Source: a candidate division FCPU426 bacterium (GTDB lineage: Bacteria > Oederibacteriota > Muellerivitia > Muellerivitales > DAHXKG01). From it: 64,000 bases of DNA. Positions within the stretch are counted from its first letter, which is position 1; each line of letters begins with the position of its first letter. The DNA is taken from contig DAHXKG010000008.1 of the NCBI GenBank assembly GCA_027366525.1, forward strand, positions 26,556-90,555. The letters run 5' to 3'. The notes beneath the pieces were generated by a model. That model was not told where the DNA came from and searched no databases. It was given only the letters and a program-made list of their open reading frames with translations. The translations under genes and the position numbers were made by a program. Shown here piece by piece: positions 3,523-46,424 of this stretch.

Positions 3523-3834
3523 ATGCCATTTATTAGAAGCCGTTTTAACAATCGAGGTAACCGAAAAATGGCGATTGCTTTGACTTACAAACGTGATTCG
3601 ATGGGCGCGCCACAAGTGGTTGCCAAGGGACGCGGTGTGATGGCCGATCGAATTTTAGAACTGGCTCAACAGCATCATGTTCCGGTAAAACAAGATAAGT
3701 TTTTGATGGAAACGTTGGATCAAGTTGGCTTGGGACAGCAAATTCCCGCTGAACTTTATCAAGCGGTGGCAGAGGTTTTAGTGGCTGTTTATCGAACAGA
3801 ATCTGGTTTTAAGAAGCAGAATCCAGGACTCTAG
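3523..3834 (+). CDS. FlhB C-terminal domain-like protein (EscU/YscU family small homolog, YlqH-like)
   Basis: The segment MAIALTYKRDSMGAPQVVAKGRGVMADRILELAQQHHVPVKQDKFLMETL matches the FlhB C-terminal domain pattern (KAAALKYD...APVVVAKG.G..A..I...A.EH.IPI.ED..LAR.L). Confidence 0.7.
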   Translation: MPFIRSRFNNRGNRKMAIALTYKRDSMGAPQVVAKGRGVMADRILELAQQHHVPVKQDKFLMETLDQVGLGQQIPAELYQAVAEVLVAVYRTESGFKKQNPGL

Positions 3835-3917
3835 ATCGTTAAAATTTAAAAAGGATGAATTTAAACTTGGAGAGAACTTGTTATGGTGAAAAGATTTTCT
3901 TGGAAAGTAATTTTTTA

Positions 3918-6020: not shown

Positions 6021-7587
6021 AAAACTAATTCTTTTGACTGCATTAGTGCTTTTAACGGGAACGGCCTGGGGAAGTTATTTTACCCTTGGGGGTGTATCCG
6101 GATTTGGGGCTAGACCTATTGGAATGGGTGAAGCGTATGCGAGTGTGGCCGATGGCCCAAGTGCTATTTTTTATAACCCGGCAGGACTAGTTCAGGTACT
6201 TCGACCCACTATTTCAGGCATGGGAGCTGCACTTTTAAATGGAAAAGAATTTACGGGCGACTTGGAATATGTTCAGCCTTTTGGTGATCAGATGGCATGG
6301 GCGATTGCAAGCACGGAATTGTATCACACAGAAGGGGCTTTAACCGTCGAGCGAGTTTATTACGTGACTTTAGCAACGCCGTTATCCATCAATAAGTCAT
6401 TTTCATTTGGTGTTAATTTTAAATATTACACGGTGAGTTCTTCAGTTCTCCCTGATAGTGCAGGCGATGCATTTGGAATTGATTTAGGCTTTTTATATCA
6501 TATCCCCATTCCTAATCCAACTTATGGAAAGCAAATCAACTTGGGTTTGAGTGTTCAAAACTTGGATACAGTGCTCACCCAATCCAACGGAGCGAGCCAA
6601 CAACTTCCCACAGACGTTCATGTGGGATTAAGCTATCAAATTAATAATTCCTTAGAAGCTGCGTTCGAAACCGAATCGTTTAAAGATCCGGATACAAACG
6701 GAAAAGTAACCATCCTTCATGCCGGCATTGAGGCTTGGTTCTTTCAAGACCATTTGGGTTTAAGAACGGGTTATGATGGATTCCAAACATTAAATGGTGA
6801 ATTTACCGCTGGTATTAGTTACCGGGGGTCAAGCTGGGGAATTGACTATGCCTATATTGGGCATCCGCAGTTCTTGGGGTCATCACATCGTATTTCTGCC
6901 GAATGGCGTTTTGGAAGAAGTTTCTTGGGGAATTCAGAAACATTTGTTCCTCAAGATGTCGTGGCTTATGTTCGCGGCAACATTATTACCATTCAATGGA
7001 CAGGGTCGCGAAGTATTAACTTAGAAGGTTATAATGTTTATTTTACCAAAACGTCAGGTTCAAACTATGTCAAAATCAATCAAAAACCGATTCAAGAAAA
7101 TTACTATGCTGTTCGAGGTCTTGAAAAAAACACTACATATTATTTTGTTGTAACTTCGGTTATGAATACAAAGCCGCCGATGGAAAGCCAATATTCACGT
7201 GAGGTTCGAGCGATCACAACTTCGGCTCCAGTAGCGCCTGTTTTGGCTAAAGCGCAAGTAAGCCAAGAGGGGGCCATCGATGTGGCTCGGCAATTTGACA
7301 TGGTTTCCTTTGGAAGTCCAGCCAAGCAGGGCTTAAAAGGATATAACATTTATATGTCAGAGGTTCAGGGTGGGCGATTTATTAAGGTGAATGGGTTGCC
7401 AATTGGGAATGTGCCAACCTATGTTGTTCGTCACCTATCCATTGGACAAACCTATTATTTCCGCTTTACTTCAGTGGGGACCAATGGGGTGGAAAGTGCA
7501 CCTTCGAAAGAAGTTTCGGCGATTGCATTGCCTTATGCGACGGTGATTCAATCAACGCTTACATTGCCTAAAAAATCAAAACCTTAA
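6010..7587 (+). CDS. FadL/PorV-family outer-membrane beta-barrel protein with two C-terminal fibronectin type III-like domains
   Basis: Signal peptide present. The motif GARPIGMGEAYASVADGPSAIFYNPAGL is a paralog of the upstream gene's hatch motif. There are two FN3-like repeats (YNVYFTKTSGSNYVKIN...TTYYFVVTSV and YNIYMSEVQGGRFIKVN...TYYFRFTSV). The start overlaps the upstream gene and the stop lies 15 nt before flgF. Confidence 0.6.
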   Translation: MGFKKLILLTALVLLTGTAWGSYFTLGGVSGFGARPIGMGEAYASVADGPSAIFYNPAGLVQVLRPTISGMGAALLNGKEFTGDLEYVQPFGDQMAWAIASTELYHTEGALTVERVYYVTLATPLSINKSFSFGVNFKYYTVSSSVLPDSAGDAFGIDLGFLYHIPIPNPTYGKQINLGLSVQNLDTVLTQSNGASQQLPTDVHVGLSYQINNSLEAAFETESFKDPDTNGKVTILHAGIEAWFFQDHLGLRTGYDGFQTLNGEFTAGISYRGSSWGIDYAYIGHPQFLGSSHRISAEWRFGRSFLGNSETFVPQDVVAYVRGNIITIQWTGSRSINLEGYNVYFTKTSGSNYVKINQKPIQENYYAVRGLEKNTTYYFVVTSVMNTKPPMESQYSREVRAITTSAPVAPVLAKAQVSQEGAIDVARQFDMVSFGSPAKQGLKGYNIYMSEVQGGRFIKVNGLPIGNVPTYVVRHLSIGQTYYFRFTSVGTNGVESAPSKEVSAIALPYATVIQSTLTLPKKSKP

Positions 7588-12998: not shown

Positions 12999-13074
12999 AT
13001 TGCACTAATTTTATTAAAGTTTTGAATATTCAAGGCGTTAGAGCTTGTAAGAAATTAATAATTGAGGTGCACAT

Positions 13075-13368
13075 ATGCGTATTAATGGGTTTCAAAATAT
13101 TCCTTCCGTTTTACAAACATTTGAAACTAAAGAACTCTCACAAGCTTCTACCCCGGCGTCGTCATCCAACACATCGGTCACATTAAGTCTATTTGCCGAA
13201 ACATTGAAGCAACTCCAGCGAGAAGCTGTTCAACAGTCAACAACCCACCAAACTAAAATTCAGCAAATGGCTCATCAAATTGAAACTGGAACCTTTCAAA
13301 TGCAATACGACAAGCTGGCCCAGCAATTGGATCAATTTCAATTATTTAATTGGGAGAATCCAGCATGA
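13075..13368 (+). CDS. flgM: anti-sigma-28 factor FlgM
   Basis: 97-aa protein. The C-terminus KIQQMAHQIETGTFQMQYDKLAQQL matches the FlgM sigma-28-binding region. Position upstream of flgN-flgK. Confidence 0.75.
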   Translation: MRINGFQNIPSVLQTFETKELSQASTPASSSNTSVTLSLFAETLKQLQREAVQQSTTHQTKIQQMAHQIETGTFQMQYDKLAQQLDQFQLFNWENPA

Positions 13369-13859
13369 CTGAGGCAAGCCACCGCCTATTTATGATTTTG
13401 AACGAGGAAAGGGAGCATTATGAGCTTTTATGTTTGTTGGCTGAAGAACAGAAGAAAATTTTAATTGCTGGACAAGTTGAAAAATTAACAGCCAATGTTC
13501 AATTGCAAGAAAAAGAAATTTTCAAAATCACACCATTAGCTCAAGAACGGAAAGAAATTTTGGATCGAATCGCAAAGCAACTTAAAAAAAGTAATTTTGC
13601 ACTTGAAAACTGCATGACGGATGAATGGGAAGAATCTTCATCGCAATTGAAGGAAGCCATACGAATGCTTGTTCAGCAGGTCCGACGTCTAGAAGTTTTG
13701 AATCGCGGCAATGAAAAATTGTTAAAAAATGCATTAGGGTATGTCCAGTTTACTTTGAAAGTGCTAAATGCCACTTCTTCAAAAGATCCAGTTCAATTGA
13801 AGGAAGCTTTACCGGCCTTTTCAAAGCCGTCTTCTAAATTTGTGAATCAAGTCGTTTAA
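13350..13859 (+). CDS. flgN: flagellar export chaperone FlgN
   Basis: 169-aa coiled-coil acidic protein between flgM and flgK. Confidence 0.65.
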   Translation: MGESSMTEASHRLFMILNEEREHYELLCLLAEEQKKILIAGQVEKLTANVQLQEKEIFKITPLAQERKEILDRIAKQLKKSNFALENCMTDEWEESSSQLKEAIRMLVQQVRRLEVLNRGNEKLLKNALGYVQFTLKVLNATSSKDPVQLKEALPAFSKPSSKFVNQVV

Positions 13860-13869
13860 GGAGGCTCAC

Positions 13870-16056
13870 GTGATTGGAAGTCTTTTGGGTTATGAAACCT
13901 CACTCAATGGAATGTATGTTAATCAGTTAAATATGGATACTGCGGCCTCCAATTTGGCTCAGAATTATATTGATTCCAATGGATATGTAATGTCGAGCTT
14001 ACAGATTGTCAATACGACGGGGGGGCCTTCTATTTTAGTCAATGAACCGGGTGGCATCTCCGCGGTAGGAACCGGTCCGATAGTTGAAAGTATAACAAGA
14101 TCTCGAAGTGCATTTCTAGATTCTCAAATTCAGAGTGAAAGCTCAATCGTTGGTATGCAGGAAGTTCTAAATAGTACCCTTAACCAAATCAATACAGTCT
14201 TAAATGGGTCAACGACCATTAATTCATCTTTGAATCAATTGGCAACAAGTTTCTCGACGTTAGCGGCGAATCCTACCAATGCGGCGGATTTACAAACGGT
14301 GGTTAATAATGGAGTAAGTTTTGCAAATTTAGCTAATAATCTTTATGATCAATTGCAAAATTTACAGAATGGCATCAATACGCAAGTTGGATCAACAGTT
14401 ACCCAAATTAATGGTTATTTACAGCAGTTGAATTCGATTAATAAGCAACTTTTAGCAAATCCTGGAACCGATGTAAACAATTTATTGGATGCGCGTGATT
14501 ATACCATTACGCTTTTATCTCGACTTGTTAATATTCAGGTAAGTTATGGCGTTCAAGGTACCGCTACGGTTTGGCTTCAAGGGCTACCACTGGTTAATTC
14601 TGCAGGTGCAGCTATTTTGAGTACTAATTTGATAGACGGTCACAATGATCAATTAGTGGCTGTTCAATATCAAACGCCGCAAGGATCGATAGATCCTCAA
14701 ACAGTTAATTCGCTCATTACGGGAGGAGTTTTGGGAGGCGAACTTCAATCAATGGGGCCGATTATTGATTCCTATGAAACAGCTTTAAATCAAGTGGTCA
14801 ACTCAGTGATTACAGTGACGAATATTCTTACAAGTGCTGGATACGCGGCTTCGAATGGGACGACGACGGGTATTAATTTCTTTACAGGAACTTCAGCACT
14901 AAATATTAATGTCAATGCAACTTTAATTGCTAATCCGTCATTGTTGGGCGTTTCAAGTCAATATGGAGTTCCAGCGAATGGACAAATTGCTGGATTTTTA
15001 GGGAATTTACCCAATTTGTTAGCCAATAATTATATGGTTAGTCAACCCCAGATGAATTCTGTATTTGGAAATATTGATCCAACCCAACCCATGAATTCAA
15101 CTGCCGCGACGGCCTTAAATGGCACAGGAAGCAATTCCACAAATTTTAATGGAACTATTACTCCCGGAACCTTTACGATTGATGGCACGACTATCAATTT
15201 TACGGCGAATGAAAGTCTTCAGACGATTATTAATCAGATCAATTCGCTAGTGCCAAATGTGGATGCGGTGTTTAACTATACGCAGCAAAAAATATATATT
15301 TTATCCGCACAACCGGTGGTTATGAACGATGGAACAGGGGATTTTAAAGCGGGGATTTCATATTTACAAAATGTTTTGACGAGTAGTTTTCAGATGAATA
15401 ATGGAGTAACAACCGCGGATCCAGCCATTAACTATTTTACGCCGATGAATACGCCGTATAATACGCAAGCATTTCAAGTCACCCCATCGTCCACAGGAAT
15501 CTTTACGATAAATGGAATTACGTTCACATTCTCTAATACGCAATCGTTACAACAACTCTTGGGAAATATTTCAGCGGGTTTGGGTGCAGGAGTTGCTGCA
15601 ACGTTTAATCCCTCGGCGGAAACCATTACGATTTATAATCCGAATACGCCGATGACCGTATCAGATACCGTGGGCAATTTTAGTCAATTCACGGGGTTAA
15701 ATGCCAATATTAGCGCGGGCAATGCATCGTCAGCACTGCTACAACAAGCTACCGACGCCTCTAATCAAGCTACAATGAATTTTCAAAATTCATCCAATGA
15801 ATTATCTCAATTGAATACCGCACAAGCCAATATTGCGGCAGTGAGTTTTCCCAATACGTCTGGATCAGGTTCCGCTACGATGGGGCCCGGGGTGCCCTAC
15901 ACAAGTATTGAAGCCGGTGCAATGCAGGATTTGATCGCATATAACGCGTCACTTGAAATGATACAAATTTTGGATCAGATGTATGCTAATTTAATTAATG
16001 CTGTTAGTGGCGGAACGATGGCGATTAGTCTTCCTGGAAAATTTCCAGCAGTTTGA
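13870..16056 (+). CDS. flgK: flagellar hook-associated protein 1 FlgK
   Basis: N-terminal flagellar rod/hook family motif (NGMYVNQLNMDTAASNLAQNYIDSNGY). 728 aa. The C-terminal helical domain is conserved. Confidence 0.85.
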   Translation: MIGSLLGYETSLNGMYVNQLNMDTAASNLAQNYIDSNGYVMSSLQIVNTTGGPSILVNEPGGISAVGTGPIVESITRSRSAFLDSQIQSESSIVGMQEVLNSTLNQINTVLNGSTTINSSLNQLATSFSTLAANPTNAADLQTVVNNGVSFANLANNLYDQLQNLQNGINTQVGSTVTQINGYLQQLNSINKQLLANPGTDVNNLLDARDYTITLLSRLVNIQVSYGVQGTATVWLQGLPLVNSAGAAILSTNLIDGHNDQLVAVQYQTPQGSIDPQTVNSLITGGVLGGELQSMGPIIDSYETALNQVVNSVITVTNILTSAGYAASNGTTTGINFFTGTSALNINVNATLIANPSLLGVSSQYGVPANGQIAGFLGNLPNLLANNYMVSQPQMNSVFGNIDPTQPMNSTAATALNGTGSNSTNFNGTITPGTFTIDGTTINFTANESLQTIINQINSLVPNVDAVFNYTQQKIYILSAQPVVMNDGTGDFKAGISYLQNVLTSSFQMNNGVTTADPAINYFTPMNTPYNTQAFQVTPSSTGIFTINGITFTFSNTQSLQQLLGNISAGLGAGVAATFNPSAETITIYNPNTPMTVSDTVGNFSQFTGLNANISAGNASSALLQQATDASNQATMNFQNSSNELSQLNTAQANIAAVSFPNTSGSGSATMGPGVPYTSIEAGAMQDLIAYNASLEMIQILDQMYANLINAVSGGTMAISLPGKFPAV

Positions 16057-16077
16057 AAAATTTCAAAAGAGGTTTTT

Positions 16078-18672
16078 TTGGATAACGTTACTAATATTTT
16101 AAATCAATTAAGTCACAGTTCAAAAACAACAATAATGGATTTATTGTCTGGGAAAAATTTGCCCAGTTCTACTTCCTCAAACAGTGAAAATTCCAATTTT
16201 CAGAAAGTATTAAAGGAATTATTAAGTTCAGCGGCCACGATACCCAATAATGAATCTTCGAGTTCTAATGTAGCTAGTCAAGTTTCAACTAGCCTTTTTG
16301 AAGAATCACTCACGCTACAAAATAATACCCCAACGCCAACAACGTTAAATACCCAATCCACGATATCAAGTTTGTCTTTAAATAGTCCCTCGACAAATAG
16401 CTCCTCGACAATTTTGGAATCTTCTAGTTTGCTTTTAAATCTGTTGTCGACTTTGCTGACAGTTAATTCCCAAAATAATGTTTCTCCCAATACCAGTGCA
16501 ACAGGTTTATCAAATTCTGAAAATAATATCGGAAATTTATTGAATTATCTTCAGAAGACGATGAATCAATTTTTAAATTTATTGTCAGATATTCAAACGC
16601 TGCCCATGTCTCAAATCCAAGCCACGTTGGAACAGATGACCCATCTCCAAGGTTCATCCGCCTCCATTACAACTTTTCTTAATAATTTACAATCTGATTT
16701 AAAAAATATATCCAAGCAAACGACACAAACGCCTAAACAAATTATGGGGAATGTGACCTTTCAACAAGTGGTTTTTCAAGCTATTTTGATTCAGGGAGTA
16801 GAACAATCAAATAATACTCAATCTTCGACAAGCAAGACTTTTTCAACATCGTCCACAATGGTTTTCTCAGGGATGATAAGTGTTGAGAGTTTAGATTTCG
16901 GGGTATTATTAAATCAAACGAATGGATCTACTCCGGTTAATAAGGGGATGACGGGTTCAGCGAGTACGCTACTTCAGTCAACCAATCCAAATTTACTATC
17001 AAACTCAGGCAAAAATTTGGGTGATTTGATTCAATTATTAGCTCAATCCAATGTTTCCCAAGCAATTTTAGAAATTGCAGTTCAAACTTGGAATGCGAGT
17101 GCTCAAATGAATTCAATGACCAATAAAGATTCATCCATACCCAACTCGCTATCCATTTCTTCCGCGAGTAGCATTAATGTTAATGAGAATTCTAAAAGCT
17201 TGGTTCGGGAAATTTTGAATTCCACACAAGGATCAAACTTAAAAACGAATGAGCTTTCTTCCAATTCAACTGTAATTACACCATCGTCGGTTCAAAATCC
17301 AACGCAAGAACAATTGGCTTCAAGTTTTAAAACTATTTTGACGGAACTAACCAGTTTAAGTCAAAAAATGGCCGACCAGACCCTCACTGCTTCTGAAGCA
17401 TTGCAACAGCTGCGCCCCATTATTGAAACTTTAAGTCATTTGGGAATTCAATTGAACAATTCCATTACGCCCGCGAATTTAATGAGTGAGGTTCAAACGA
17501 TTACTGAATTGGTAAAAAATTCGATTAATAGTATTAATATGACGAACTCCGTAAACACGAATTTGAAATCTTCCACCCTGCCGCTGAATCAGGAGAACAA
17601 GACTACGATATCCCTGACTGCGTCAGACCCGTCATCGACCCCAAACTTGAAATCTTCCACCCTGCCGCTGAATCAGGGGAACAATAGTACAATATCCCTG
17701 ACTGCGTCAGATCCGCCATCGACCCCAAATTTGAAGTCTTCCACCCTGCCGCTGAATCAAGAGAGCAACAGTACGCTTGCCATGAGTGTTCCAACTCCTT
17801 CATCCACGACTAATTTGAAACCCAGTATGGAAGTGCAAAACCTATCAGAAAACACTTCTAATACAGGACTTGAAACAGTTTATCCATTAAACGTATCAAA
17901 ATTGGTCGCTAATTCAGGATCCGATAAATTGAGTTCCAATAATCAAGAACTCTCGCTTACGACAGGGATCACGCTCAATGAATCTACGTTAGGTGTTGCT
18001 CCTAAAACCACATCCAGCACTTCAAATACACCAACAAACTTACTAAATCAAAATACTAATAAGGTGATTGAGCCGAGCCCTGTTGCTGAAAACGGAAAAT
18101 TAGTTTCTTCTGGTGCTAAAACAATATTAGGATCTGGGCATATAACTCCAAATATGGCTGAATCGGCCGCATCGTTGACCGCGGGATCGACAGCAGTTTT
18201 GGGTAACAATGAAAGTTTAGGTACTCTAAATCCTGCTATCTTGTCAACAATGATTATCAACCAAATTAGCACTCAAGTTTCCAGTCAATTACAGCAGTTA
18301 CATGTTCAATCACAGATTAACTTCCAGCTAATTCCTGAAAATTTGGGTAAGGTGGCTGTTCAACTGGTTTTAGTCGATCAGACTGTTTCCGCTAATATTG
18401 TAGTGACTAATGCGGATGTGCGCGATCTCCTGCAGCACCATCTGGTGGAGTTGAACTCAGCGCTAATTCAATCTGGCCTTCAAATCAGCAATCTTCAAGT
18501 TCATGTACAAACTGGCTCCTCGAATCTTTTGGGGCAATATTATCAATACCAACAAGAGTCGACGAAAAACAAAAAGTTGTCAACATTATTATCTGGTGGT
18601 GGTATTATATCAATGACTTCTGAAGTTGCGGGAATAGTTTATGATCAAGGAGCAGTAAATATATTGGCTTAA
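16078..18672 (+). CDS. fliK: flagellar hook-length control protein FliK (Ser/Thr-rich, with internal 27-aa tandem repeats)
   Basis: The C-terminal Flg_hook domain is present (INFQLIPENLGKVAVQLVLVDQTVSANIVVTNADVRDLLQHHLVELNSALIQSGLQISNLQVHVQ). The body is long, low-complexity and S/T/N-rich. TTG start. Confidence 0.8.
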   Translation: MDNVTNILNQLSHSSKTTIMDLLSGKNLPSSTSSNSENSNFQKVLKELLSSAATIPNNESSSSNVASQVSTSLFEESLTLQNNTPTPTTLNTQSTISSLSLNSPSTNSSSTILESSSLLLNLLSTLLTVNSQNNVSPNTSATGLSNSENNIGNLLNYLQKTMNQFLNLLSDIQTLPMSQIQATLEQMTHLQGSSASITTFLNNLQSDLKNISKQTTQTPKQIMGNVTFQQVVFQAILIQGVEQSNNTQSSTSKTFSTSSTMVFSGMISVESLDFGVLLNQTNGSTPVNKGMTGSASTLLQSTNPNLLSNSGKNLGDLIQLLAQSNVSQAILEIAVQTWNASAQMNSMTNKDSSIPNSLSISSASSINVNENSKSLVREILNSTQGSNLKTNELSSNSTVITPSSVQNPTQEQLASSFKTILTELTSLSQKMADQTLTASEALQQLRPIIETLSHLGIQLNNSITPANLMSEVQTITELVKNSINSINMTNSVNTNLKSSTLPLNQENKTTISLTASDPSSTPNLKSSTLPLNQGNNSTISLTASDPPSTPNLKSSTLPLNQESNSTLAMSVPTPSSTTNLKPSMEVQNLSENTSNTGLETVYPLNVSKLVANSGSDKLSSNNQELSLTTGITLNESTLGVAPKTTSSTSNTPTNLLNQNTNKVIEPSPVAENGKLVSSGAKTILGSGHITPNMAESAASLTAGSTAVLGNNESLGTLNPAILSTMIINQISTQVSSQLQQLHVQSQINFQLIPENLGKVAVQLVLVDQTVSANIVVTNADVRDLLQHHLVELNSALIQSGLQISNLQVHVQTGSSNLLGQYYQYQQESTKNKKLSTLLSGGGIISMTSEVAGIVYDQGAVNILA
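17560..17802 (+). repeat. three tandem copies of an 81-nt repeat inside fliK (NLKSSTLPLNQ-E/G-N-x-TTISLTASDPSSTP)
   Basis: Near-identical 81-nt units are read directly in the sequence. The protein-level repeats are visible in the ORF translation. Confidence 0.9.
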
Positions 18673-18735
18673 AGTTAAAGTTTTTGAAGAATATGACGTT
18701 AGGTTTATCAGTAAATCTGAAGAAAGAGGTGGCTT

Positions 18736-19143
18736 ATGATTTCAGGCGTTAATGGAAGCAATAGTAATATTGTTAATATGCCGGCAACGAGTTCACAAAC
18801 AACTGCGTCGGATATTGGTTCAGAACAAGCATTTTTGCAATTGCTCATTACTCAATTGAAAAATCAAGATCCAACTAATCCAGCCGATCCAACTCAATTC
18901 GTTGCTGAATTAGCTCAGTTTTCAAGTTTAGAGCAAATGACGAATATGAACTCAAATATCCAATCGTTGGAACAAATGTCGGTAGTGGGCTTAATTGGGA
19001 AAACTGCTACGGTAGCAGATTCAAGTGCACCAGGCGGATTTGTAACCGGAACCATCAATGGAATTACGTACTATGCGAATGGTCCAGCAGTCAATATTAA
19101 CGGCCAGGATTATGCATTTAGTGCAGTACAAAACATTCAATGA
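18736..19143 (+). CDS. flgD: flagellar hook assembly/capping protein FlgD
   Basis: EQAFLQLLITQLKNQDPTNPADPTQFVAELAQFSSLEQM is the canonical FlgD N-terminal motif. Confidence 0.9.
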   Translation: MISGVNGSNSNIVNMPATSSQTTASDIGSEQAFLQLLITQLKNQDPTNPADPTQFVAELAQFSSLEQMTNMNSNIQSLEQMSVVGLIGKTATVADSSAPGGFVTGTINGITYYANGPAVNINGQDYAFSAVQNIQ

Positions 19144-19159
19144 TCTAGGGGAGTAATCA

Positions 19160-19579
19160 GTGGTTCAGCCAGTTAGTTTTAATGGAAAAATTTTTAAAAC
19201 GCAGGATGTGAATGAGACTGCGGTCACTCATCCAACGAGTTTCCCTTCAGTTGCTGGGAAAACCTTGGATACAACTCAACCATTTGAATCCGTTTTGCAA
19301 GGCGTAGTTGGAAAAACAACGGAGTTGAAATTTTCAACACATGCCAAAGAGCGACTTCAGATGAGAAACATCCAACTGGGATCCTCGGATCTAGAAAAAA
19401 TATCAGATGCTGTGAATAAAGCGGCGGCCAAGGGTTCACAAGAATCCTTGTTGGTAATGCATAATAGTAATTTGGCTTTAATTGTTAGTATTAAAAATCG
19501 TACTGTCATTACGGCATTAGACGGATCAAGTATGAAAAATAATGTCTTTACTAATATTGACAGTGCAATCATTGTTTGA
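19160..19579 (+). CDS. small flagellar operon protein between flgD and flgE (Firmicutes-type flgD-flgE interposed family)
   Basis: 139-aa ORF between flgD and flgE, the same position as the small flagellar operon protein of many Firmicutes and Thermotogae. Confidence 0.5.
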   Translation: MVQPVSFNGKIFKTQDVNETAVTHPTSFPSVAGKTLDTTQPFESVLQGVVGKTTELKFSTHAKERLQMRNIQLGSSDLEKISDAVNKAAAKGSQESLLVMHNSNLALIVSIKNRTVITALDGSSMKNNVFTNIDSAIIV

Positions 19580-19653
19580 GGAGTAATATTTCGGGCTGGA
19601 CCTAAATAGGAAGCCTGAAATCAAAACTTTAAGAGTCTTATAGGGAGGCAAAT

Positions 19654-21483
19654 ATGTCTAATGAAGCGATGTTTAGTGCGGTTTCAGGCCTGCAAGCAGA
19701 CAGCACATGGCTGGATGTTATCGGAAATAATATTTCCAATCAAAATACCGTTGGTTATAAAGCCAGTCGTTTGGAATTTGCAAGCCAGCTCAGTCAAACC
19801 TTAAATGCGGGTAGTGGTCCAGATCCCGGACAAAATTTAGGTGGTGTGAACCCGATGCAAGTTGGATTGGGTACTCGGGTTGAATCGATTCAAACTCTTT
19901 TTACGGAAGGCCCATTACAGCAGACGGGTATTTCTACGGATATTGCGATTGTGGGAAATGGTTTTATTGTTGCCAAGCAAGGATCGCAAACCGTATACAC
20001 GCGAGCTGGAAATTTAACATTTGATGGAAATGGAAATTTGGTTACGGCAAATGGTGCCATTGTTCAAGGCTACACTGCGTCGGAACAATTTACACAACAA
20101 ACGATTAACGCGGGTGCGGCGCCTCTAGTAGTTACATATTCTTCAGAAACTTTAACGACGAATGGAGTGCCTCAAAACATTCAAATCAATCAAAGCTTAA
20201 CCATTCCAGCTAAAGCAACATCCCAGGTTAATTTCACCGGTAACCTTGATTCATTTCAACAAGCAGATCAGCCAGGTGGCGTGTTGAATCTTGCGGTGGG
20301 TGGTGTGGATCAGCTTCCCGTTGCCGCTGCTACTTTCGCAGCAACAGCCAATCTTGAAGCTAACCCTAATAATGCAGCGGATACCGTCTTGCATCAAGAT
20401 GGAAATTACGCATTAAACGGTGCTGCAGCAGGCGCACAACAAGCCAATCCTTTAGTAACGGGTGGTGGTGTGAGTATTGCTGCTGCAAACGCTGATGCAA
20501 ACTATGTTTGGAATCAGAATCCACCGGTACCACCTGCCAAAACGGTTGTGACGACGATTTATAATTCAGTTGGAGACCCAATTCAAGTTACAACGCTATT
20601 TTATCAAGTTAATGATTTGGGACAGGCTGGAATTAACACTCCAACATCGGCTCAACCAAGTCAGGTTGCTTATGCGTGGTATTCTTTTAATACAACCGGA
20701 GGAGTACAACCCTATACCGGAGCTACGACAGCAACTCAAACTCCAAATTTATTGGGTGGATCAGGTATTATTGAAGGGTACAGCAGAAATACAGGAAATC
20801 AGTATGAAGGGGATTTAATATATTTTAACACGGATGGTTCGTTGGCATCCATGGGAGGAGTCGATGTAACTACGGGAACTCAAGTGGCCCCAACACTTTA
20901 TATCCCTCCGGCTAATCCAGGGATTCCAGCCGCTTCTCCGTTACCCACTAACGGCGCTCAAATTGTCGCTGCACAGCTTAACTTTGGGACAGCTGGAACA
21001 CTGGGTTTTGGTCAAAGAAATGGTCTTTTCAGTGATGCAGAAGGCAGCTATCAAGTAGTCAATGGGGTGAACACGTATGTACCGAGCAGTACAGCGTATG
21101 TGTCATCACAGAATGGTTATGCCGATGGTACCTTGCAGAGTGTGAGTTTTGACCAAACAGGAACGATTCAGGGTGCGTTTAGCAATGGACAAACGGTAGC
21201 ACTGGGGCAAATTGTTATGGCCAATTTTGCCAATCCGGATGGATTGAACAATATTGGTGGTACAGATTTCACGCCATCTTCCAATTCGGGACCAGAGTAT
21301 GTTGGATTGGCTGGTACCAATGGGTTGGGGACGGTTCAAGGAAGCACATTGGAAATGTCTAATGTGGACTTGACAACGGAACTATCCAACATGATTATTG
21401 CTCAAAATGCATTTGATGCAAATGCAAGAGTTGTTACGGTAGTGAGTCAAGAAGATCAGACTCTAACTCAATTGGGCCTGTAA
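19654..21483 (+). CDS. flgE: flagellar hook protein FlgE (copy 1)
   Basis: N-terminus FSAVSGLQADSTWLDVIGNNISNQNTVGYKASR and C-terminus GSTLEMSNVDLTTELSNMIIAQNAFDANARVVT. 609 aa with no Cys. Confidence 0.9.
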   Translation: MSNEAMFSAVSGLQADSTWLDVIGNNISNQNTVGYKASRLEFASQLSQTLNAGSGPDPGQNLGGVNPMQVGLGTRVESIQTLFTEGPLQQTGISTDIAIVGNGFIVAKQGSQTVYTRAGNLTFDGNGNLVTANGAIVQGYTASEQFTQQTINAGAAPLVVTYSSETLTTNGVPQNIQINQSLTIPAKATSQVNFTGNLDSFQQADQPGGVLNLAVGGVDQLPVAAATFAATANLEANPNNAADTVLHQDGNYALNGAAAGAQQANPLVTGGGVSIAAANADANYVWNQNPPVPPAKTVVTTIYNSVGDPIQVTTLFYQVNDLGQAGINTPTSAQPSQVAYAWYSFNTTGGVQPYTGATTATQTPNLLGGSGIIEGYSRNTGNQYEGDLIYFNTDGSLASMGGVDVTTGTQVAPTLYIPPANPGIPAASPLPTNGAQIVAAQLNFGTAGTLGFGQRNGLFSDAEGSYQVVNGVNTYVPSSTAYVSSQNGYADGTLQSVSFDQTGTIQGAFSNGQTVALGQIVMANFANPDGLNNIGGTDFTPSSNSGPEYVGLAGTNGLGTVQGSTLEMSNVDLTTELSNMIIAQNAFDANARVVTVVSQEDQTLTQLGL

Positions 21484-21492
21484 GTTAATTAA

Positions 21493-21535
21493 GACATGGG
21501 GAACGAAGATAAATCGTTCCCCATGTCTGGTTTGA
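21493..21535 (+). terminator. rho-independent terminator after flgE
   Basis: Perfect 14-bp stem GACATGGGGAACGA / TCGTTCCCCATGTC with a 7-nt loop, followed by TGGTTTG. Confidence 0.7.
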
Positions 21536-21545
21536 AAGGAAATGC

Positions 21546-22568
21546 TTGTTTAGGATTAAATCAGTTTGTGATAATATCCAAGTGCTTAAGCCTTTTAAAA
21601 AAAACCAGTTATTCTACTGGTTAATAATGGGTTTTTTTTTTATTTCAGTTTGTTTAGCAGGTTGTAGTTCAAACCCAACTTCGAATCAAGTTTCAAATTT
21701 TACAGTTCTTGCATCATTTTCATCGAATCAGTCAGTAACCCTTCAAGCACCCTATGGGATCTATGTGGCTCCTTCTACTGGAAATGTGTATGTAACTAAT
21801 TGTAACCCATCGGCGAATGAACCGGCCATAGTTGAATTATCAAGTAATCTGACGTATATAGCGGGCTTTGGAAAAACTAGCGCTACGTTCGATCAAAATC
21901 AAGCAGGAACTTTTTTTCAACCACGTGGAATCACCTCAGATGGAACGAATTTCTACATTTCAGATTGGCAGAATAGTCAAGTGCAAGGTTACAATGGGTC
22001 ATCTTTTTTTATAGCTCCCGTATCACCCGTACAAGAAGATCCTTGGGGGATTGATTATGATCGTAGTGCGACCTCACTTTTAGTGGTTGAAAATGCTGAA
22101 TTCCAATCCAACTCCAACTCCAACTTGAGTCAAGTTTATTCTTTTAACATAGGCTTAAGCGCGTCAAGTCCTTTAGAAAATATCACTCAACCGATTGATT
22201 TAATCGGAGTAACGGCCGATTCAGCGGGCAATATCTATGTGACAGATAATAAGAATGAGCGAATTATCAAGTTTAATTCAGCTGGTGTTTCTTTGACTTC
22301 CTGGGGGTCTCGTGGAAGCCTGCCAGGACAGTTTTCGTCAGGCATTTCAGGCATTATGGCCGACAGTTCCAATAATATTTGGGTTACAGATATGGGAAGT
22401 GGTGCGGGTTCAATTCAGGAATTTTCGAATAGTGGAGCTTTTGAAGGGGAATGGAAGGCCCCGCCGAGTCTTTCTCTTTTTGCGCCGGCGGATATCCAAA
22501 TTGGCCCAAATGGCAATTTTTATGTATGTGATGCTGAAAATAGTGTAGTCTATGAGCTTAGTTTATAG
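21546..22568 (+). CDS. NHL-repeat beta-propeller lipoprotein
   Basis: Probable lipobox FFFISVCLAGC (alternative start near 21627). At least five NHL-like repeats (NVYVTNCN, NFYISDWQNSQVQGY, NIYVTDNKNERIIKFN, NIWVTDMGSGAGSIQEF, NFYVCDAENSVVYEL). Confidence 0.65.
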   Translation: MFRIKSVCDNIQVLKPFKKNQLFYWLIMGFFFISVCLAGCSSNPTSNQVSNFTVLASFSSNQSVTLQAPYGIYVAPSTGNVYVTNCNPSANEPAIVELSSNLTYIAGFGKTSATFDQNQAGTFFQPRGITSDGTNFYISDWQNSQVQGYNGSSFFIAPVSPVQEDPWGIDYDRSATSLLVVENAEFQSNSNSNLSQVYSFNIGLSASSPLENITQPIDLIGVTADSAGNIYVTDNKNERIIKFNSAGVSLTSWGSRGSLPGQFSSGISGIMADSSNNIWVTDMGSGAGSIQEFSNSGAFEGEWKAPPSLSLFAPADIQIGPNGNFYVCDAENSVVYELSL

Positions 22569-22628: not shown

Positions 22629-22850
22629 ATGATTAAAATAACTAGATTAAATGGTCAAGAAGTTTATGTTAATTGTGATTTGATTTTGTTTATTGAAAGC
22701 TCTCCAGAAACTATTTTAACACTCGAAAGCGGGAAAAAGATCACGGTTAAAGAAACGATTACAGAAGTTGTTAAAAGGATTGTCGAATTCAAAGCAAAGT
22801 GTTATCCTAAGGTAGTGGATGCAGTTGAAAAAAGCAGCGATCATTTATGA
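22629..22850 (+). CDS. flbD: flagellar protein FlbD
   Basis: 73-aa MIKITRLNGQEVYVNCDLILFIES..GKKITVKETITEVVKRI matches the FlbD family. Confidence 0.8.
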   Translation: MIKITRLNGQEVYVNCDLILFIESSPETILTLESGKKITVKETITEVVKRIVEFKAKCYPKVVDAVEKSSDHL

Positions 22851-24075: not shown

Positions 24076-25191
24076 ATGGCCAAAAAATGCTTAGGATGGT
24101 TATTAATTCTTATTCTTTTACCAACGTTCGTATGGGCGAGTGGATTTTCCGATCCACAAAATGAATGGGAGTTTGGAAATGGGTATGGTCCTGTTACGGT
24201 TTTTCACCAATGGACATTAACGACTTCAAATTCAAATGCCAACATTGAACTTCAACAAGCTGTGAGCACAGTTTATCCTGGGGAAACGTATGCCGGAGCG
24301 GTAACATCAACATCCTCTTTAGCCTCAGACAATATCACGATGACTTATAGTGTGCCAAGTACAGTTACTGTTAGCGTTCCAAATTATTTACAAATTTATG
24401 TGAATTCATCCGTTTCATTAGCTTTTCATTTTATAGTTACGGACACTTCAGGAAATGCAGTTACACTAACGGCACAAATTATCAGTCCCGGGTGTGCGTC
24501 GTTGTCTTCTACGAGTGCAGATATATGGGATACAGTATTCGTTACCTTGACATCAGCACAAACCATTTTGAATAATATTTCAACGGTGCAAATTTCGACA
24601 AGCATGGGGAGTAATTCGCTTTCTTCAAGTCCAATTTATTTAGATAATTTAATAACCACTAGCCAAAATCCAGCTGCCGCATGTAATACGCCTACACCCA
24701 CACCGACACCAGTGCTCACAGCTATTCCAACGCCGACGGGAACTATTTTTACTCCTACATATACTCCCACGGGTTCAATTACTCCAACGCCGACTCCGAC
24801 TATTTTTATTACTCCGACACCAACGGCGACTGCAACGCCTATGTGTCCAATTTCGGTTTATCCAAATCCCATGAACTTTCAAGCAGGCCCAAATAGTTTT
24901 CCACCAGGCCCATACGTTAATCATTGTCCCAATGATCCATATGGATGCATTAAATTTGATTGTGTTCCATTTGGATCAACGTTAAAAATATATACCATTT
25001 CGTTAGAACTTGTGCAAACATTTGGACCGAATTCCATTATTCCAATGGGTAATGGAAATGGAAGAATTATTTGGGACGGCGACAATAGCAATCAGGATCC
25101 CGTTGCTGCGGGAATTTATTTTTATCTAATTACTAATCCTTTGGGGCATTGGACCGGTAAATTTGCAATTGAACAAGCGAGGCCCAATTAA
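24076..25191 (+). CDS. secreted protein with a Thr/Pro linker and a Por-type (T9SS-like) C-terminal sorting domain
   Basis: Signal peptide present. A TPTPTPTP...TPTPTATATP linker is followed by ISVYPNPMNF...GRIIWDGDNSNQDPVAAGIYFYLITN, which matches the Por_Secre_tail / FlgD-Ig-like consensus (vYPNPa...GvYfy). Confidence 0.55.
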   Translation: MAKKCLGWLLILILLPTFVWASGFSDPQNEWEFGNGYGPVTVFHQWTLTTSNSNANIELQQAVSTVYPGETYAGAVTSTSSLASDNITMTYSVPSTVTVSVPNYLQIYVNSSVSLAFHFIVTDTSGNAVTLTAQIISPGCASLSSTSADIWDTVFVTLTSAQTILNNISTVQISTSMGSNSLSSSPIYLDNLITTSQNPAAACNTPTPTPTPVLTAIPTPTGTIFTPTYTPTGSITPTPTPTIFITPTPTATATPMCPISVYPNPMNFQAGPNSFPPGPYVNHCPNDPYGCIKFDCVPFGSTLKIYTISLELVQTFGPNSIIPMGNGNGRIIWDGDNSNQDPVAAGIYFYLITNPLGHWTGKFAIEQARPN

Positions 25192-26153
25192 TGGTTCGGC
25201 AACGTTTTTTTTTGAAAATTCTTTTTTTCCTGATTTTTATTCCAACGATGGTTTGGGCCTCGTCAGGCTCGGCAGGAATAAGCGCATTTGATTTTTTGGA
25301 AATTTCACCCATTGCTCGAGCAACAGCCATGGGCGGTGCTTATGCGGCATTGGGGAATGATATAGGTTCTATTTATTATAACCCGGCCGGACTTGCGGAT
25401 ATTTTAACGACGCAAGTCGATGTTACATATCTGGATTTGTATCAAAATATTAGCGATGAATTTTTTGCATTTGCCTATCCTTTAAAACCCAAACTTTCTT
25501 CGATTGGAGGAACATTTGCTGCAGCATTGAATTTAATTCAAACCGGTTCATTCCCAAGATTAGATGATTTTGGAAATAATATTGGCAGTTTTACTAGTGG
25601 GATGGATGAATTTATGTTGGCGTATGCAAAATCGTTGGGTTCACGTGTGCAATTTGGATTGACCGCTAAATTCCTTAATCAACAGATTGATCAAATTTCA
25701 CAATCCGCTTTTGCTATGGATATCGGAACTTTAATTTTGCCGCCTGTATCTGGAATGCGCATTGGATTAGCGATCCAAAATCTGGGTGGAACAGTGAATA
25801 ATTTTAATTTGCCATGTATGCTTTTAGCAGCAGTGTCCTATCGCAAATATGATCTTTTCTCGTATCAAGATGATGGGGCTTTTACCGTTCAAACTACGGT
25901 TCCAATTCAACCTGTCGGGCAAACACCAGAAGTTCAAGTCGGTGCAGAATATAATTATAAGTTGGTGGGCCAACGGTTTAGTCTCCGCGGGGGCTATCAA
26001 TTTTTAAATAATTCTTTGCAAGGCATTGGAATGACGTTGGGGGCTGGTTATGGAGTCGATTTCAATGGAGCCGTCGTATTTATCGATTATGCCTTTGAAC
26101 CTGCAGGCGTTTTTGGAAATTCGAATCGTATTTCTTTGATTACTAAGTTTTAA
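25191..26153 (+). CDS. PorV/PorQ (FadL-like) family outer-membrane beta-barrel protein
   Basis: Signal peptide plus ARATAMGGAYAALGNDIGSIYYNPAGL hatch motif. 320 aa with a C-terminal aromatic residue (F). The start overlaps the stop of the sorting-domain protein. Confidence 0.6.
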   Translation: MVRQRFFLKILFFLIFIPTMVWASSGSAGISAFDFLEISPIARATAMGGAYAALGNDIGSIYYNPAGLADILTTQVDVTYLDLYQNISDEFFAFAYPLKPKLSSIGGTFAAALNLIQTGSFPRLDDFGNNIGSFTSGMDEFMLAYAKSLGSRVQFGLTAKFLNQQIDQISQSAFAMDIGTLILPPVSGMRIGLAIQNLGGTVNNFNLPCMLLAAVSYRKYDLFSYQDDGAFTVQTTVPIQPVGQTPEVQVGAEYNYKLVGQRFSLRGGYQFLNNSLQGIGMTLGAGYGVDFNGAVVFIDYAFEPAGVFGNSNRISLITKF

Positions 26154-26206
26154 TCATGTAAAATAGTTGATAATAATGAGCAACTTAATTTAGAGGGTAA
26201 TAAATT

Positions 26207-27154
26207 TTGAGAAAAATTTTTGTTATTTTGATGGTCTTTTTTTTAACAACAGGGGTTAGTTTAGCTGCCTCGCCTGGAACAACCGGAGGGAGCATTCTTC
26301 AAGTGGTGGAAGGCGCCATTCCAGCAGGTATGGGGGGGGCTTTTACCGCGATTGCAAGTGGTGATTATGCCATTGATTATAACCCGGCAGGATTGGTTTC
26401 CTTGGATGCTCCGGAAGCGGTGGCAATGTATCACTCTGAATTAGCAACTATTTCAGATGATTATTTTACCTTCGCGACTCCCATTAATACTACTCAAGCA
26501 ATTGCGTTGCATATTAGTTATGATTATATTCCGCCCATTAACAATGGAAATGGCAATCCGGCAGTTAATGCGTATGATATCTTATTTATGGGTACCTATG
26601 CATTTAAACTATCCAATTTTATTCAACTGGGTGCATCTTTAAAATATTTGAGGTCAGTTTTAGCTTATTATGGAACTTCAGCAATTGCTGTAGATTTAGG
26701 GGGACAAATTTCTCATCTGCCTTTTGGATTAAAGGGCGGCCTGGCCATTCAAAATCTGGGTGGACAGTTAAAATATTTGAGTGTGGGTGTGCCCTTACCT
26801 CTGATTATTCGCATTGGGCTTGGATGGGAAACATTGGTTGATCAAAAACGCAAATTAGAACTAGATTTAGATGTTGTGGATGATTCAAGTGAAGGCATGG
26901 GGATTCGATTGGGTGGGGAATATTGGGTGTTTCCAAGATTGTTTGCAATTCGAGCTGGAATCAATAAAATTTCGCAAAATGTTTATAATAGTGGATTCCC
27001 TCCAAGTCTTGGATTTACTTTGACAGATGAAGTTGACTCCAATAAGTATTCGTTAGATTTTGCCTACAACCCGGCTACTTTACCGGGATCCATTGTCGAT
27101 AATACGTATTTAGTGTCTTTGCGTTGTTCATTTGAAAACTGGACAATATTTTGA
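26207..27154 (+). CDS. PorV/PorQ (FadL-like) family outer-membrane beta-barrel protein, paralog
   Basis: Signal peptide plus AIPAGMGGAFTAIASGDYAIDYNPAGL motif. 315 aa, ends in F. TTG start. Confidence 0.55.
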   Translation: MRKIFVILMVFFLTTGVSLAASPGTTGGSILQVVEGAIPAGMGGAFTAIASGDYAIDYNPAGLVSLDAPEAVAMYHSELATISDDYFTFATPINTTQAIALHISYDYIPPINNGNGNPAVNAYDILFMGTYAFKLSNFIQLGASLKYLRSVLAYYGTSAIAVDLGGQISHLPFGLKGGLAIQNLGGQLKYLSVGVPLPLIIRIGLGWETLVDQKRKLELDLDVVDDSSEGMGIRLGGEYWVFPRLFAIRAGINKISQNVYNSGFPPSLGFTLTDEVDSNKYSLDFAYNPATLPGSIVDNTYLVSLRCSFENWTIF

Positions 27155-45737: not shown

Positions 45738-46424
45738 TTATTGAATTTTTTTAAGTTTGTTTAAGATCTTAGCTCTTAATTTTAAAGCTTTCAAACGCAG
45801 AGGAGGGTCAATGAAACAGTGAAATATTTTGTTAAGTTCATATAAAGCAACAGAGATTTTTTTTTCTTTGTAATAAAATAAAAACGATAAGGCATAATAT
45901 GCTTTGGCCATGGTAGGATCAAGCTGAACAGCTTGCCGAAATTCATGAATCGAAACGGCTATTTTTTTAAACTTATAGTCAATCAGTCCTAAATAATAGT
46001 GAATAATTGAAATTTGAGCATCCAGTTTATCCGCAATCTCGAAATTTTTTTGTGCCAAATTAAAATGACCGGAGTCGTAATAAGTTCGACCTAAATAGAT
46101 ATAGTTCATCGGCATGGCTGGGGAATGAGCTTCAACCCAGAGAAAATTTGTTTCAGCTGTTAAATAGTTGTGGAGATAGTAGGACGAAACGCCAAGATAA
46201 AAATGCGCTCCTGTATTGGTTGAATTAAAGGTTAAGACTTTTTTAAAATCATTGGATGCTTTTAAAAAATGGTACTGTTTAAGATTTTTAATCCCAATCA
46301 GGAAATCCTTGCGAGCTGTTTTTTTAGAATAAGACGCCAAGGATAGGGATGGAATTATAGCGAGTATAAGGGATAGAAGGAAAATTTCTAAAGTGATGAA
46401 AAGTAATTTGGCTTTAAAGCTCAT
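45738..46424 (-). CDS. secreted TPR-repeat protein (cassette copy 2)
   Basis: Signal peptide MSFKAKLLFITLEIFLLSLILAIIPSLSLA. Paralog of 43739..44407. The start overlaps the stop of the response-regulator gene. Confidence 0.6.
   Translation of the reverse strand: MSFKAKLLFITLEIFLLSLILAIIPSLSLASYSKKTARKDFLIGIKNLKQYHFLKASNDFKKVLTFNSTNTGAHFYLGVSSYYLHNYLTAETNFLWVEAHSPAMPMNYIYLGRTYYDSGHFNLAQKNFEIADKLDAQISIIHYYLGLIDYKFKKIAVSIHEFRQAVQLDPTMAKAYYALSFLFYYKEKKISVALYELNKIFHCFIDPPLRLKALKLRAKILNKLKKIQ

Follow-up and report, generated by a model that had tools for sequence, protein, structure and literature searches.

Hook length in bacterial flagella is set by FliK, while extra residues of the hook protein FlgE form outer domains that add no hook length. 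FliK is itself secreted while the hook is being built, and cells that lose it form polyhooks. In Salmonella, engineered FliK proteins of 363-785 aa gave rise to hooks of 42-135 nm, i.e. 0.2 nm per residue (PMC6126814). For YscP, which acts as needle ruler in Yersinia's injectisome, the length of the protein is likewise in proportion to the length of the structure being measured (PMC3469391). The fliK gene of Borrelia is located beside flgD-flgE within the large flgB operon (PMC4032328). At the filament side of the hook, FlgN serves as chaperone of FlgK and FlgL (PMC2864241).

The contig studied here comes from candidate phylum FCPU426, from an uncultured soil or peat bacterium. We found nothing published on motility in this phylum; the literature that we found names it merely as a rare taxon. 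The analysis of a stretch of 64,000 nucleotides (hereafter the window) provides a first outline of the FCPU426 flagellar supercluster. We consider it quite likely that FliK follows flgK in this lineage as the result of an ancestral block move, that the filament genes are located elsewhere, and that the ruler was lengthened by segmental duplications.

Layout of the locus

From a FapA gene to a PorV-like gene, the genes are arranged on a single strand with intergenic gaps of at most 137 nt, and all features described here from flgM to flbD lie on the + strand. The gene flgM (13075..13368) codes for an anti-sigma-28 factor (Pfam FlgM E=2.5e-6; TIGR03824 E=8e-10), and its position is kept in FCPU426 loci. 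It is followed by flgN (13350..13859), the export chaperone for hook-associated proteins (Pfam FlgN E=1.4e-17). Gene callers put the flgN start at 13365, with a called product of 164 aa. Next come flgK (13870..16056; hook-filament junction protein 1, 728 aa; Pfam FlgK_D1 E=1.6e-38) and fliK (16078..18672; 864 aa; the ruler for hook length and switch protein for export specificity), the latter with a TTG start codon and the ribosome-binding site AAGAGG ahead of it. The distance of 21 nt between these two ORFs, as noted in a previous sequence-only reading, is confirmed, and so is the presence of flgD and flgE downstream of fliK. The hook cap and scaffold gene flgD (18736..19143; Pfam FlgD E=1.1e-22) and flgE (19654..21483; hook protein, 609 aa; Flg_bb_rod, LlgE_F_G_D1 and Flg_bbr_C; TIGR03506 238 bits) enclose a gene for the small flagellar protein 'flg_new' (19160..19579; TIGR02530 111 bits vs a cutoff of 83; Pfam Flagellar_put). 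The module continues with an NHL-repeat beta-propeller protein carrying an N-terminal lipoprotein-like signal (21546..22568; Pfam NHL E=3e-19), whose slot is taken by Kelch-type proteins in two relatives (L021, L023), and ends with flbD (22629..22850; called product of 73 aa with PF06289 FlbD). Another FlgE-like gene is found at 57345-59225; its product of 626 aa is the upper end of the previously given FlgE size range (609-626 aa). A sequence scan of the flgK-flgD interval detected no terminator-like site, a regex search revealed no sigma-28 or sigma-54 consensus promoters upstream of flgM, flgK or fliK, and a generic promoter and terminator scan gave a score not above shuffled controls.

FlgK is enlarged to 728 aa and possesses an internal insert with two 'GTFTI(D/N)G...' motifs. 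The TIGR02492 profile matches at E=3.7e-45, covering only its N-terminal 342 of 437 positions, and E. coli FlgK matches at 1.7e-14. The 55 full-length homologs (34-47% identity) all originate from uncultured bacteria. A scan of the genome collection with a single FlgK sequence returned no matches; with an alignment as query, it succeeded. The C-terminal pattern 'GVP..IE..A.Q.LIAYNA.LE..Q..D.MY' is kept in the phylum alignment and stays below the Pfam Flg_bbr_C threshold. A fusion of FlgK and FlgL was rejected, because the C-terminus of the 728-aa protein is this phylum-conserved FlgK pattern and no flagellin-family match was obtained.

Identity and length of FliK

The earlier identification of the 864-aa ORF as FliK is supported by its Flg_hook domain, by an N-terminus conserved in 20 orthologs, by its place in a fliK-flgD-flgE module, and by its sole PDB match. 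The Flg_hook/T3S4 domain (Pfam PF02120) spans aa 744-815 (18307..18522; E=1.4e-13, 50.9 bits vs a cutoff of 29.8), and a phmmer search of the PDB returned only the C-terminal domain of Salmonella FliK (2RRL_A, E=1.2e-3). Across the 20 FCPU426 orthologs, this domain is the best-conserved part (column conservation 0.76-0.82); the value is 0.5 for aa 1-60, aa 160-340 are also conserved, and aa 60-160 and 340-660 range from 0.16 to 0.35. The association of fliK, flgD, flg_new and flgE is present in the window and in every FCPU426 locus long enough to show it. With the C-terminal domain as query, 1455 library proteins match at E<=1e-3; these are unnamed in the library and were taken to be FliK-like on the Pfam and PDB evidence. 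The full-length protein retrieved only itself from an index of 5.8 billion proteins, its low-complexity sequence having saturated the word filter. Its composition, previously described as S/T/N-rich, amounts to 40% S+T+N, vs 21% in the other window proteins. Judged by its sequence, the ORF is a FliK ortholog of the ordinary kind, set in a gene order specific to the lineage and presumably functioning as a hook ruler.

FliK measures 826-1079 aa in the FCPU426 loci, with 864 aa near the lower end, and full-length representatives of the clade range from 687 to 1115 aa (median 942). The description of the protein as unusually long is therefore valid in comparison with typical FliKs, since out-of-clade matches have a median of ~500 aa, but not within its own phylum (826-1115 aa), where it is short. 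Five of the 20 FCPU426 FliKs contain internal duplications with units of 28, 61, 123, 47 and 35 aa, which are mutually unrelated in sequence and all located near aa 370-560, in the weakly conserved central region. They were found by a sliding-identity scan with shuffle control, and were missed by blastp self-comparison; for two fliK genes of relatives, TRF predicted no tandem repeats at the nucleotide level. We propose that the central, S/T/N-rich and weakly conserved part constitutes the ruler or linker, about twice as long in this phylum as usual, and that its length may change via lineage-specific segmental duplications, the array of 3 x 28 aa being one case. With 826-1115 aa, the FliKs of the phylum form a natural series of putative rulers of great length, altered by independent segmental duplications.

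On the Salmonella scale, and only as an extrapolation, two extra units would correspond to ~11 nm and 864 aa to roughly 150 nm; a linker that is rich in S/T/N and probably disordered may deviate from 0.2 nm per residue. A speculative consequence would be FCPU426 hooks of 2-3 times the canonical length (~140-200 nm), set by FliKs of 826-1115 aa. The argument of the sequence-only reading that long FlgE proteins point to long hooks does not follow: because FliK sets hook length, the size of FlgE is uninformative in this respect. If the Salmonella scale holds, these hooks would be well beyond the optimal range for bundle stability in Salmonella (PMC6126814), and the ruler model could be tested on a natural case in this phylum. 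Failing this, the locus is a lineage-specific gene-order variant without a new mechanism.

Conserved gene order and the hook module

Besides the window, 20 FCPU426 contigs reach beyond flgK, and every one of them shows the order flgM-flgN-flgK-fliK-flgD-flg_new-flgE (L021, L023, L024, L026, L028, L030, L031, L033, L035, L036, L038, L040, L041, L043-L049). In the nearest outgroup locus (L051), the order is flgN-flgK-flgL-motA-motB-fliW-csrA. The observation that fliK occupies the slot of flgL is thus correct insofar as flgL holds this slot in the outgroup, but the arrangement is phylum-wide and not peculiar to one genome. A metagenome scan with FliQ yielded four related loci, the window's own sample not being among the results. 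In the related loci L054, L056, L068 and L069, fliJ is directly followed by motA-motB-fliL-fliM-fliN. In Firmicutes, used as a further comparison for the place of the hook module, fliK lies directly upstream of flgD-flgE as well.

The direct junction of fliJ and motA in the four related loci, together with the shared flgK-fliK order, suggests that the hook module moved as a block. According to this model, fliK-flgD-flg_new-flgE-propeller-flbD would have left its place between fliJ and motA in an ancestor of the sampled FCPU426, and would have landed behind the rod, ring and junction block flgF...flgJ-yvyF-flgM-flgN-flgK. We infer this history from the order in Borrelia and from that in Firmicutes; alternatively, the FCPU426 gene order itself could be ancestral, with no block move. 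The adjacency of flgK and fliK is a gene-order variant and not evidence of a missing flgL.

The tandem repeat array

The central region of FliK had been described as containing three near-identical 81-nt units (17560..17802) of recent origin. TRF instead predicts a period of 84 nt, i.e. three in-frame tandem copies of a 28-aa unit with the motif NLKSSTLPLNQ...STP, at 17560..17811 (17560-17643, 17644-17727 and 17728-17811; FliK aa 495-578), where column conservation is 0.25-0.33 among the 20 orthologs. Self-comparison of the protein shows 23/24 identities at offset 28, with 0 matches in shuffles. Near-identity is limited to copies 1 and 2 (91.7%); copy 3 shares 75% identity with copy 1 and 72.6% with copy 2, mostly in its first ~35 nt, and a single exact 31-mer is common to the copies. 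Nor does the expansion appear recent: the difference between the first two copies is 8%, vs ~0.35% between co-occurring strains, and the junction of copies 2 and 3 is also present in a second strain.

One could suppose that the array is a hypervariable, contingency-like locus, whose copy number differs among co-existing strains and tunes hook length in populations. The units are indeed tandem, in frame and within the ruler region, and natural YscP variants differ in how many copies of 14-, 25- and 46-aa motifs they contain, with needle length linear with copy number (PMC3469391). Furthermore, the right-hand contig of SRR15524249 begins 35 nt further in than that of SRR13201254 and carries a SNP, a possible sign of a repeat structure that differs slightly or of mixed strains. 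We nevertheless regard this model as unlikely. Copies that are 8-27% diverged and share one exact 31-mer lend themselves poorly to slippage or recombination, and the duplications seen in relatives are old and diverged, not homogeneous arrays. The array is resolved in two assemblies, a MEGAHIT k141 contig and a JGI contig, which are 100% identical over 13000-22000, array included. In four other samples, Logan contigs end at 17592 and resume at 17648 or 17683, which is precisely where the one shared 31-mer lies; because a k=31 graph must branch there, these breaks carry no information on copy number.

Search for flgL

That flgL is absent from the 64-kb window is confirmed by a Pfam scan and an FlgL HMM. 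Flagellin_N and Flagellin_C (PF00669/PF00700) have no match among the window ORFs of 100 aa or more, the 864-aa ORF included, and the HMM (88 sequences) matched nothing in the window while finding FlgL in control loci. Within 1.65 Mb of loci, the HMM matched only non-FCPU426 loci, and a phmmer search of 912 kb of loci with E. coli FlgL returned none. ORFs with Flagellin_N/C are likewise lacking from 10 kb upstream (L002) and ~9 kb downstream (L006) of the window, the accessible part of this genome being ~94 kb around the cluster; in related loci, the stretch between ~20 kb upstream of the cluster and 10 kb downstream of it holds no flagellin-family gene. A database search seeded with outgroup FlgL retrieved only Ignavibacteria/Bacteroidota-like proteins, none labelled FCPU426; such a word-indexed search is unable to reach distant FlgLs. 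Homologs of fliC, fliD and fliS were not found in the window either.

Because the hook module probably moved behind flgK, the filament-side genes flgL, fliC, fliD and fliS most likely reside at another locus. FlgL is, to our knowledge, near-universal. Its location elsewhere in the genome is most likely, an assumption based on this near-universality, on the presence of flgN, and on the precedent of Helicobacter pylori.

A more radical interpretation is that FCPU426 flagella lack FlgL, that the enlarged FlgK forms the junction on its own or jointly with a second FlgK paralog, as present in L027 and L034, and that the flgK-fliK adjacency is a scar of flgL loss. The negative searches in the window and its flanks, in the FCPU426-type loci and with the outgroup seed are what would be expected, as is the size of FlgK. 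Yet these searches covered only the neighbourhoods of flagellar clusters, and distant FlgLs are beyond the reach of the word-indexed one. These neighbourhoods lack flagellin, fliD and fliS just as they lack flgL, which means that filament genes must lie elsewhere anyway; moreover, flgN, whose product is the chaperone of both FlgK and FlgL (PMC2864241), is kept, and flgK and flgL are unlinked in H. pylori. Loss of FlgL is thus very improbable, and we favor a flgL gene at another locus.

Assembly of the array

The array is real. Although tandem repeats are often mishandled in short-read assemblies and the array is a break point of the Logan contigs, a repeat collapsed or expanded in a metagenome contig is scarcely conceivable, as all three units are distinguishable and the reading frame is intact, the MEGAHIT k141 and JGI contigs agree, a k-mer of 141 exceeds one unit and crosses the unit boundary, a Logan contig from an independent sample matches at 100% identity from offset 4 of copy 2 to the end of copy 3, and those from four samples carry the unique flank and, adjoining it, the start of copy 1.

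Comparison with known systems

The FliK proteins of Salmonella/E. coli and Borrelia/Treponema share with the window FliK the C-terminal T3S4/Flg_hook domain (PF02120, PDB 2RRL) as well as a weakly conserved, low-complexity N-terminal and central ruler region; the array of 3 x 28 aa sets the window protein apart from all of them. These FliKs are Q/P-rich, whereas the window FliK is S/T/N-rich. Salmonella FliK consists of 405 aa, and FCPU426 FliK is about twice as long. In Borrelia, fliK also lies immediately upstream of flgD-flgE, but its product has 392 aa (1179 bp; PMC4032328), vs 864 aa in the window and a phylum maximum of 1115 aa. The hook module follows fliJ in these systems and flgK in FCPU426.

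YscP resembles the window FliK in its homologous C-terminal switch domain (PMC1084347) and in the tandem repeated motifs within its ruler region. However, it belongs to an injectisome and not to a flagellar context, and its repeat number varies between strains, whereas the window copies are already diverged and the two resolved assemblies identical.

With the canonical flgM-flgN-flgK-flgL arrangement (E. coli flgKL, L051), the window has in common the order and orientation of flgM, flgN and flgK, right after flgF-G-A-H-I-J; it differs in having fliK instead of flgL after flgK. Helicobacter pylori demonstrates that adjacency of flgK and flgL is not obligatory, as flgK (HP1119) and the flgL/fla homolog (HP0295) are unlinked (fliK = HP0906); its flagellar genes are scattered, whereas in the FCPU426 locus nearly all of them are united in one same-strand supercluster.

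Gene order around flgK and fliK

According to Pfam and NCBIfam assignments, the genes from flgM to flgE lie on one strand with small intergenic gaps: flgM (13075-13368), flgN (13350-13859, overlapping flgM by 19 nt), flgK (13870-16056, 728 aa) 10 nt behind it, an 864-aa ORF (16078-18672) after 21 nt, flgD (18736-19143) after 63 nt, the TIGR02530 gene flg_new (19160-19579) after 16 nt, and flgE (19654-21483, 609 aa) after 74 nt. The sequence-only reading had placed the 864-aa ORF 21 nt behind flgK and before flgD, and these coordinates agree with it. No sigma-28 consensus was found upstream of flgM or flgK, and a terminator scan found no terminator-like site between flgK and flgD; this is consistent with co-transcription in one big same-strand cluster. 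A gene for a beta-propeller protein separates flgE from flbD (22629-22850). It occupies this position in three annotated loci (21546-22568 in the window, 18832-19860 in the related locus L021, 18940-19866 in L023), and L030 gives a similar match; the repeat type is NHL in the window, but Kelch in L021 and L023.

The Flg_hook domain (PF02120) matches aa 744-815 of the 864-aa ORF with 50.9 bits (cutoff 29.8), and the sole solved structure matched by its C-terminal 175 aa is 2RRL, the C-terminal domain of Salmonella FliK (E=1.2e-3). Together with the flgN-flgK-flgL order of an outgroup, these matches confirm the earlier identification of a FliK in the slot usual for flgL; the protein belongs to an already known kind. 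AAGAGG precedes the TTG start at 16078, and because this start opens an N-terminus kept in orthologs, we prefer the 864-aa reading to the 845-aa call of JGI. Serine, threonine and asparagine make up 40% of the protein, versus 21% of the other window proteins.

Conservation in FCPU426

Full-length homologs of the window FlgK number about 55, with 34-47% identity, and all come from uncultured bacteria; the next-best matches reach at most 31%. A genome-collection scan with the alignment of these homologs yielded 26 loci labelled candidate division FCPU426 (a phylum-rank taxon), apart from a few labelled uncultured bacterium or proteobacterium. In tblastn searches with the window proteins, the order u721-u525-flgF-flgG-flgA-flgH-flgI-flgJ-yvyF-flgM-flgN-flgK-fliK-flgD-flg_new-flgE recurs in 20 of 20 sufficiently long contigs besides the window. 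The flgK-fliK arrangement is hence a phylum-wide synteny variant. Frameshifts interrupt flagellar genes in several related contigs: L023, for instance, has one in the C-terminal part of FliK (~15400-15535), flgD, flg_new and flgE are broken up in L047, and L021 and L022 differ by a 1-nt indel. Most probably these are errors of assembly and not pseudogenes.

Search for flgL

Among window ORFs of 100 aa or more, Pfam scans gave no match to Flagellin_N or Flagellin_C. E. coli FlgL found no match in 912 kb, FCPU426-type loci included, where E. coli FlgK as control probe recovered FlgKs at 1e-17 to 1e-8. A hidden Markov model built from 87 FlgLs and E. coli FlgL, applied to 1.65 Mb, matched unrelated loci only and none of the FCPU426 type. 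The window thus contains no flgL, as had been noted; flagellin, fliD and fliS are likewise missing from it. The window is part of a 97-kb metagenome contig. Upstream of the window, fliP-Q-R, flhB, flhA, flhF, flhG, a PilZ gene, fliA and FapA occupy 10 kb; downstream, metabolic genes occupy ~9 kb. That the phylum is truly without FlgL, as these null results might be read, strikes us as very improbable; the searches cover cluster neighbourhoods.

FliK length and internal repeats

FliK ORFs in FCPU426 contigs measure 826-1079 aa. Searching exhaustively by HMMER for the C-terminal domain, we obtained 45 representatives of the clade at E<=1e-23 (687-1115 aa when full-length, median 942); beyond a gap follow ordinary FliKs with a median of ~500 aa, 8 of 104 reaching 800 aa. 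Long FliKs thus characterize the phylum; the protein once called unusually long is so compared with ordinary FliKs, but lies near the short end among its relatives.

Tandem Repeats Finder resolves three in-frame units of 28 aa (17560-17643, 17644-17727 and 17728-17811), situated where FliK conservation is lowest. Three tandem units had been described as near-identical, recent and 81 nt long. Their number stands; the period is 84 nt, and near-identity applies to copies 1 and 2 (91.7%), whereas copy 3 shares 75% with copy 1 and 73% with copy 2. Nor, unless gene conversion has intervened, is the duplication recent when measured against strain divergence: strains differ by ~0.35% (L012 versus the window), the first two copies by 8%. 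The array is real, because JGI and ENA contigs match fully over 13000-22000 and independent Logan contigs (k=31 assemblies from other samples) recover the flank into copy 1 as well as a copy 2-copy 3 stretch. All Logan contigs end at 17592 and resume at 17648 or 17683; as this is the site of the sole 31-mer common to copies 1 and 2, the breaks are a k=31 graph effect, uninformative on copy number.

A sliding-identity self-comparison (at least 13/24 identities; 0-1 matches in shuffles) detected internal duplications in 5 of 20 FliK orthologs, with units of 28 aa (window), 61 aa (L021), 123 aa (L023), 47 aa (L036) and 35 aa (L045). Their location is ~aa 370-560 in every case, and the units show no sequence kinship, which argues that the central region grows by independent segmental duplications. 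Judged by sequence, the window array appears to be one such case and no special hypervariable locus.

Further flagellar and neighbouring genes

A second FlgE-like gene (57345-59225, 626 aa), 53% identical to the clustered FlgE, gives a FlgE_D2 match which the latter does not; it stands isolated between SET-domain and transaldolase genes and occurs in three other samples (L006-L008). Between flgF and a gene for a stand-alone 103-aa protein (3523-3834), whose match to FlhB is confined to the C-terminal part (Bac_export_2 positions 261-335) and which is distinct from the full-length flhB upstream in L002, lie the unnamed ORFs u721 (3855-6020, 721 aa, weak FlgD_ig match) and u525 (6010-7587, 525 aa, fn3 match). 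Their mutual similarity is weak (24-28%), and their identity across FCPU426 loci (48-62%) exceeds that of FlgK (36-47%), which makes them candidates for flagellar components specific to the phylum. In many FCPU426 loci, two further unnamed ORFs, u371 and u320, are conserved as neighbours of the flagellar cluster.

The FlgK insert (aa ~430-470 and ~545-590; gene 13870-16056) contains the motif G(T/I)FTI(D/N)G..I.F....SLQ..I..I twice and explains much of the extra length; for two FlgK homologs, P0042 and P0048, the annotation lists the Flagellin hook IN motif (PF07196). Outside the main cluster, some FCPU426 genomes encode a second FlgK of 748 aa (L034, 6007-13957; L027), and genome MFD01231.bin.1.41 contains both FlgKs (in L034 and L044). 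Neighbours of the second FlgK in L034 are another FlgD, an S/T-rich ORF of 143 aa and three mutually paralogous ~260-aa proteins without Pfam match; L027 likewise has another FlgD, upstream. No FlgL was found beside either.

Downstream of flbD (24076-27154), proteins with PT-rich linkers precede an outer-membrane protein that resembles PorV (weak PF19572 match), and a 494-aa protein of L034 has weak C-terminal CHU_C/FlgD_ig matches, a tail resembling type IX secretion. The minus strand carries a sigma-54 activator paired with a histidine kinase (46414-49226). A sigma-54-like site, TGGCAC-N5-TTGCA (55125-55141, plus strand), falls inside a minus-strand CoA-ligase/GNAT ORF (52477-55251), ~300 nt upstream of a plus-strand Crp-family gene (55434).

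Hook length

Long hooks had also been suggested on account of the long FlgE proteins (609 and 626 aa). This argument is invalid: considering the outer domains of FlgE, its size is irrelevant to hook length. In Salmonella, engineered FliKs of 363-785 aa produce hooks of 42-135 nm, i.e. 0.2 nm per residue (PMC6126814), and wild-type hooks measure ~55 nm (PMC6972891). Extrapolated on this scale, an 864-aa FliK would correspond to a hook of ~150 nm and the FCPU426 range to ~140-200 nm; a contribution of ~11 nm would come from the two additional units of 28 aa. The nearest precedent for ruler variation driven by repeats is YscP (PMC3469391).

Origin of the fliK position

The locus of P0057, the nearest outgroup FlgK, shows the canonical layout (flgF-flgG-flgA-flgH-flgI-flgJ-flgN-flgK-flgL-motA-motB-fliW-csrA) with flgL behind flgK, whereas the window and FCPU426 loci have fliK there. 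Four FCPU426-type loci from a FliQ metagenome scan (L054, L056, L068, L069) read fliF-fliG-fliH-fliI-fliJ-motA-motB-fliL-fliM-fliN-?-fliP-fliQ, with motA directly after fliJ. Firmicutes and spirochaetes have fliJ-(x)-fliK-flgD-flgE-(flbC)-flbD-motA. The simplest reading of these observed orders is a block move: in an ancestor of the FCPU426 members sampled, the hook module fliK-flgD-flg_new-flgE-propeller-flbD would have been cut out from between fliJ and motA and reinserted behind flgK. In Borrelia, fliK adjoins flgD-flgE within the 26-gene flgB operon (PMC4032328).
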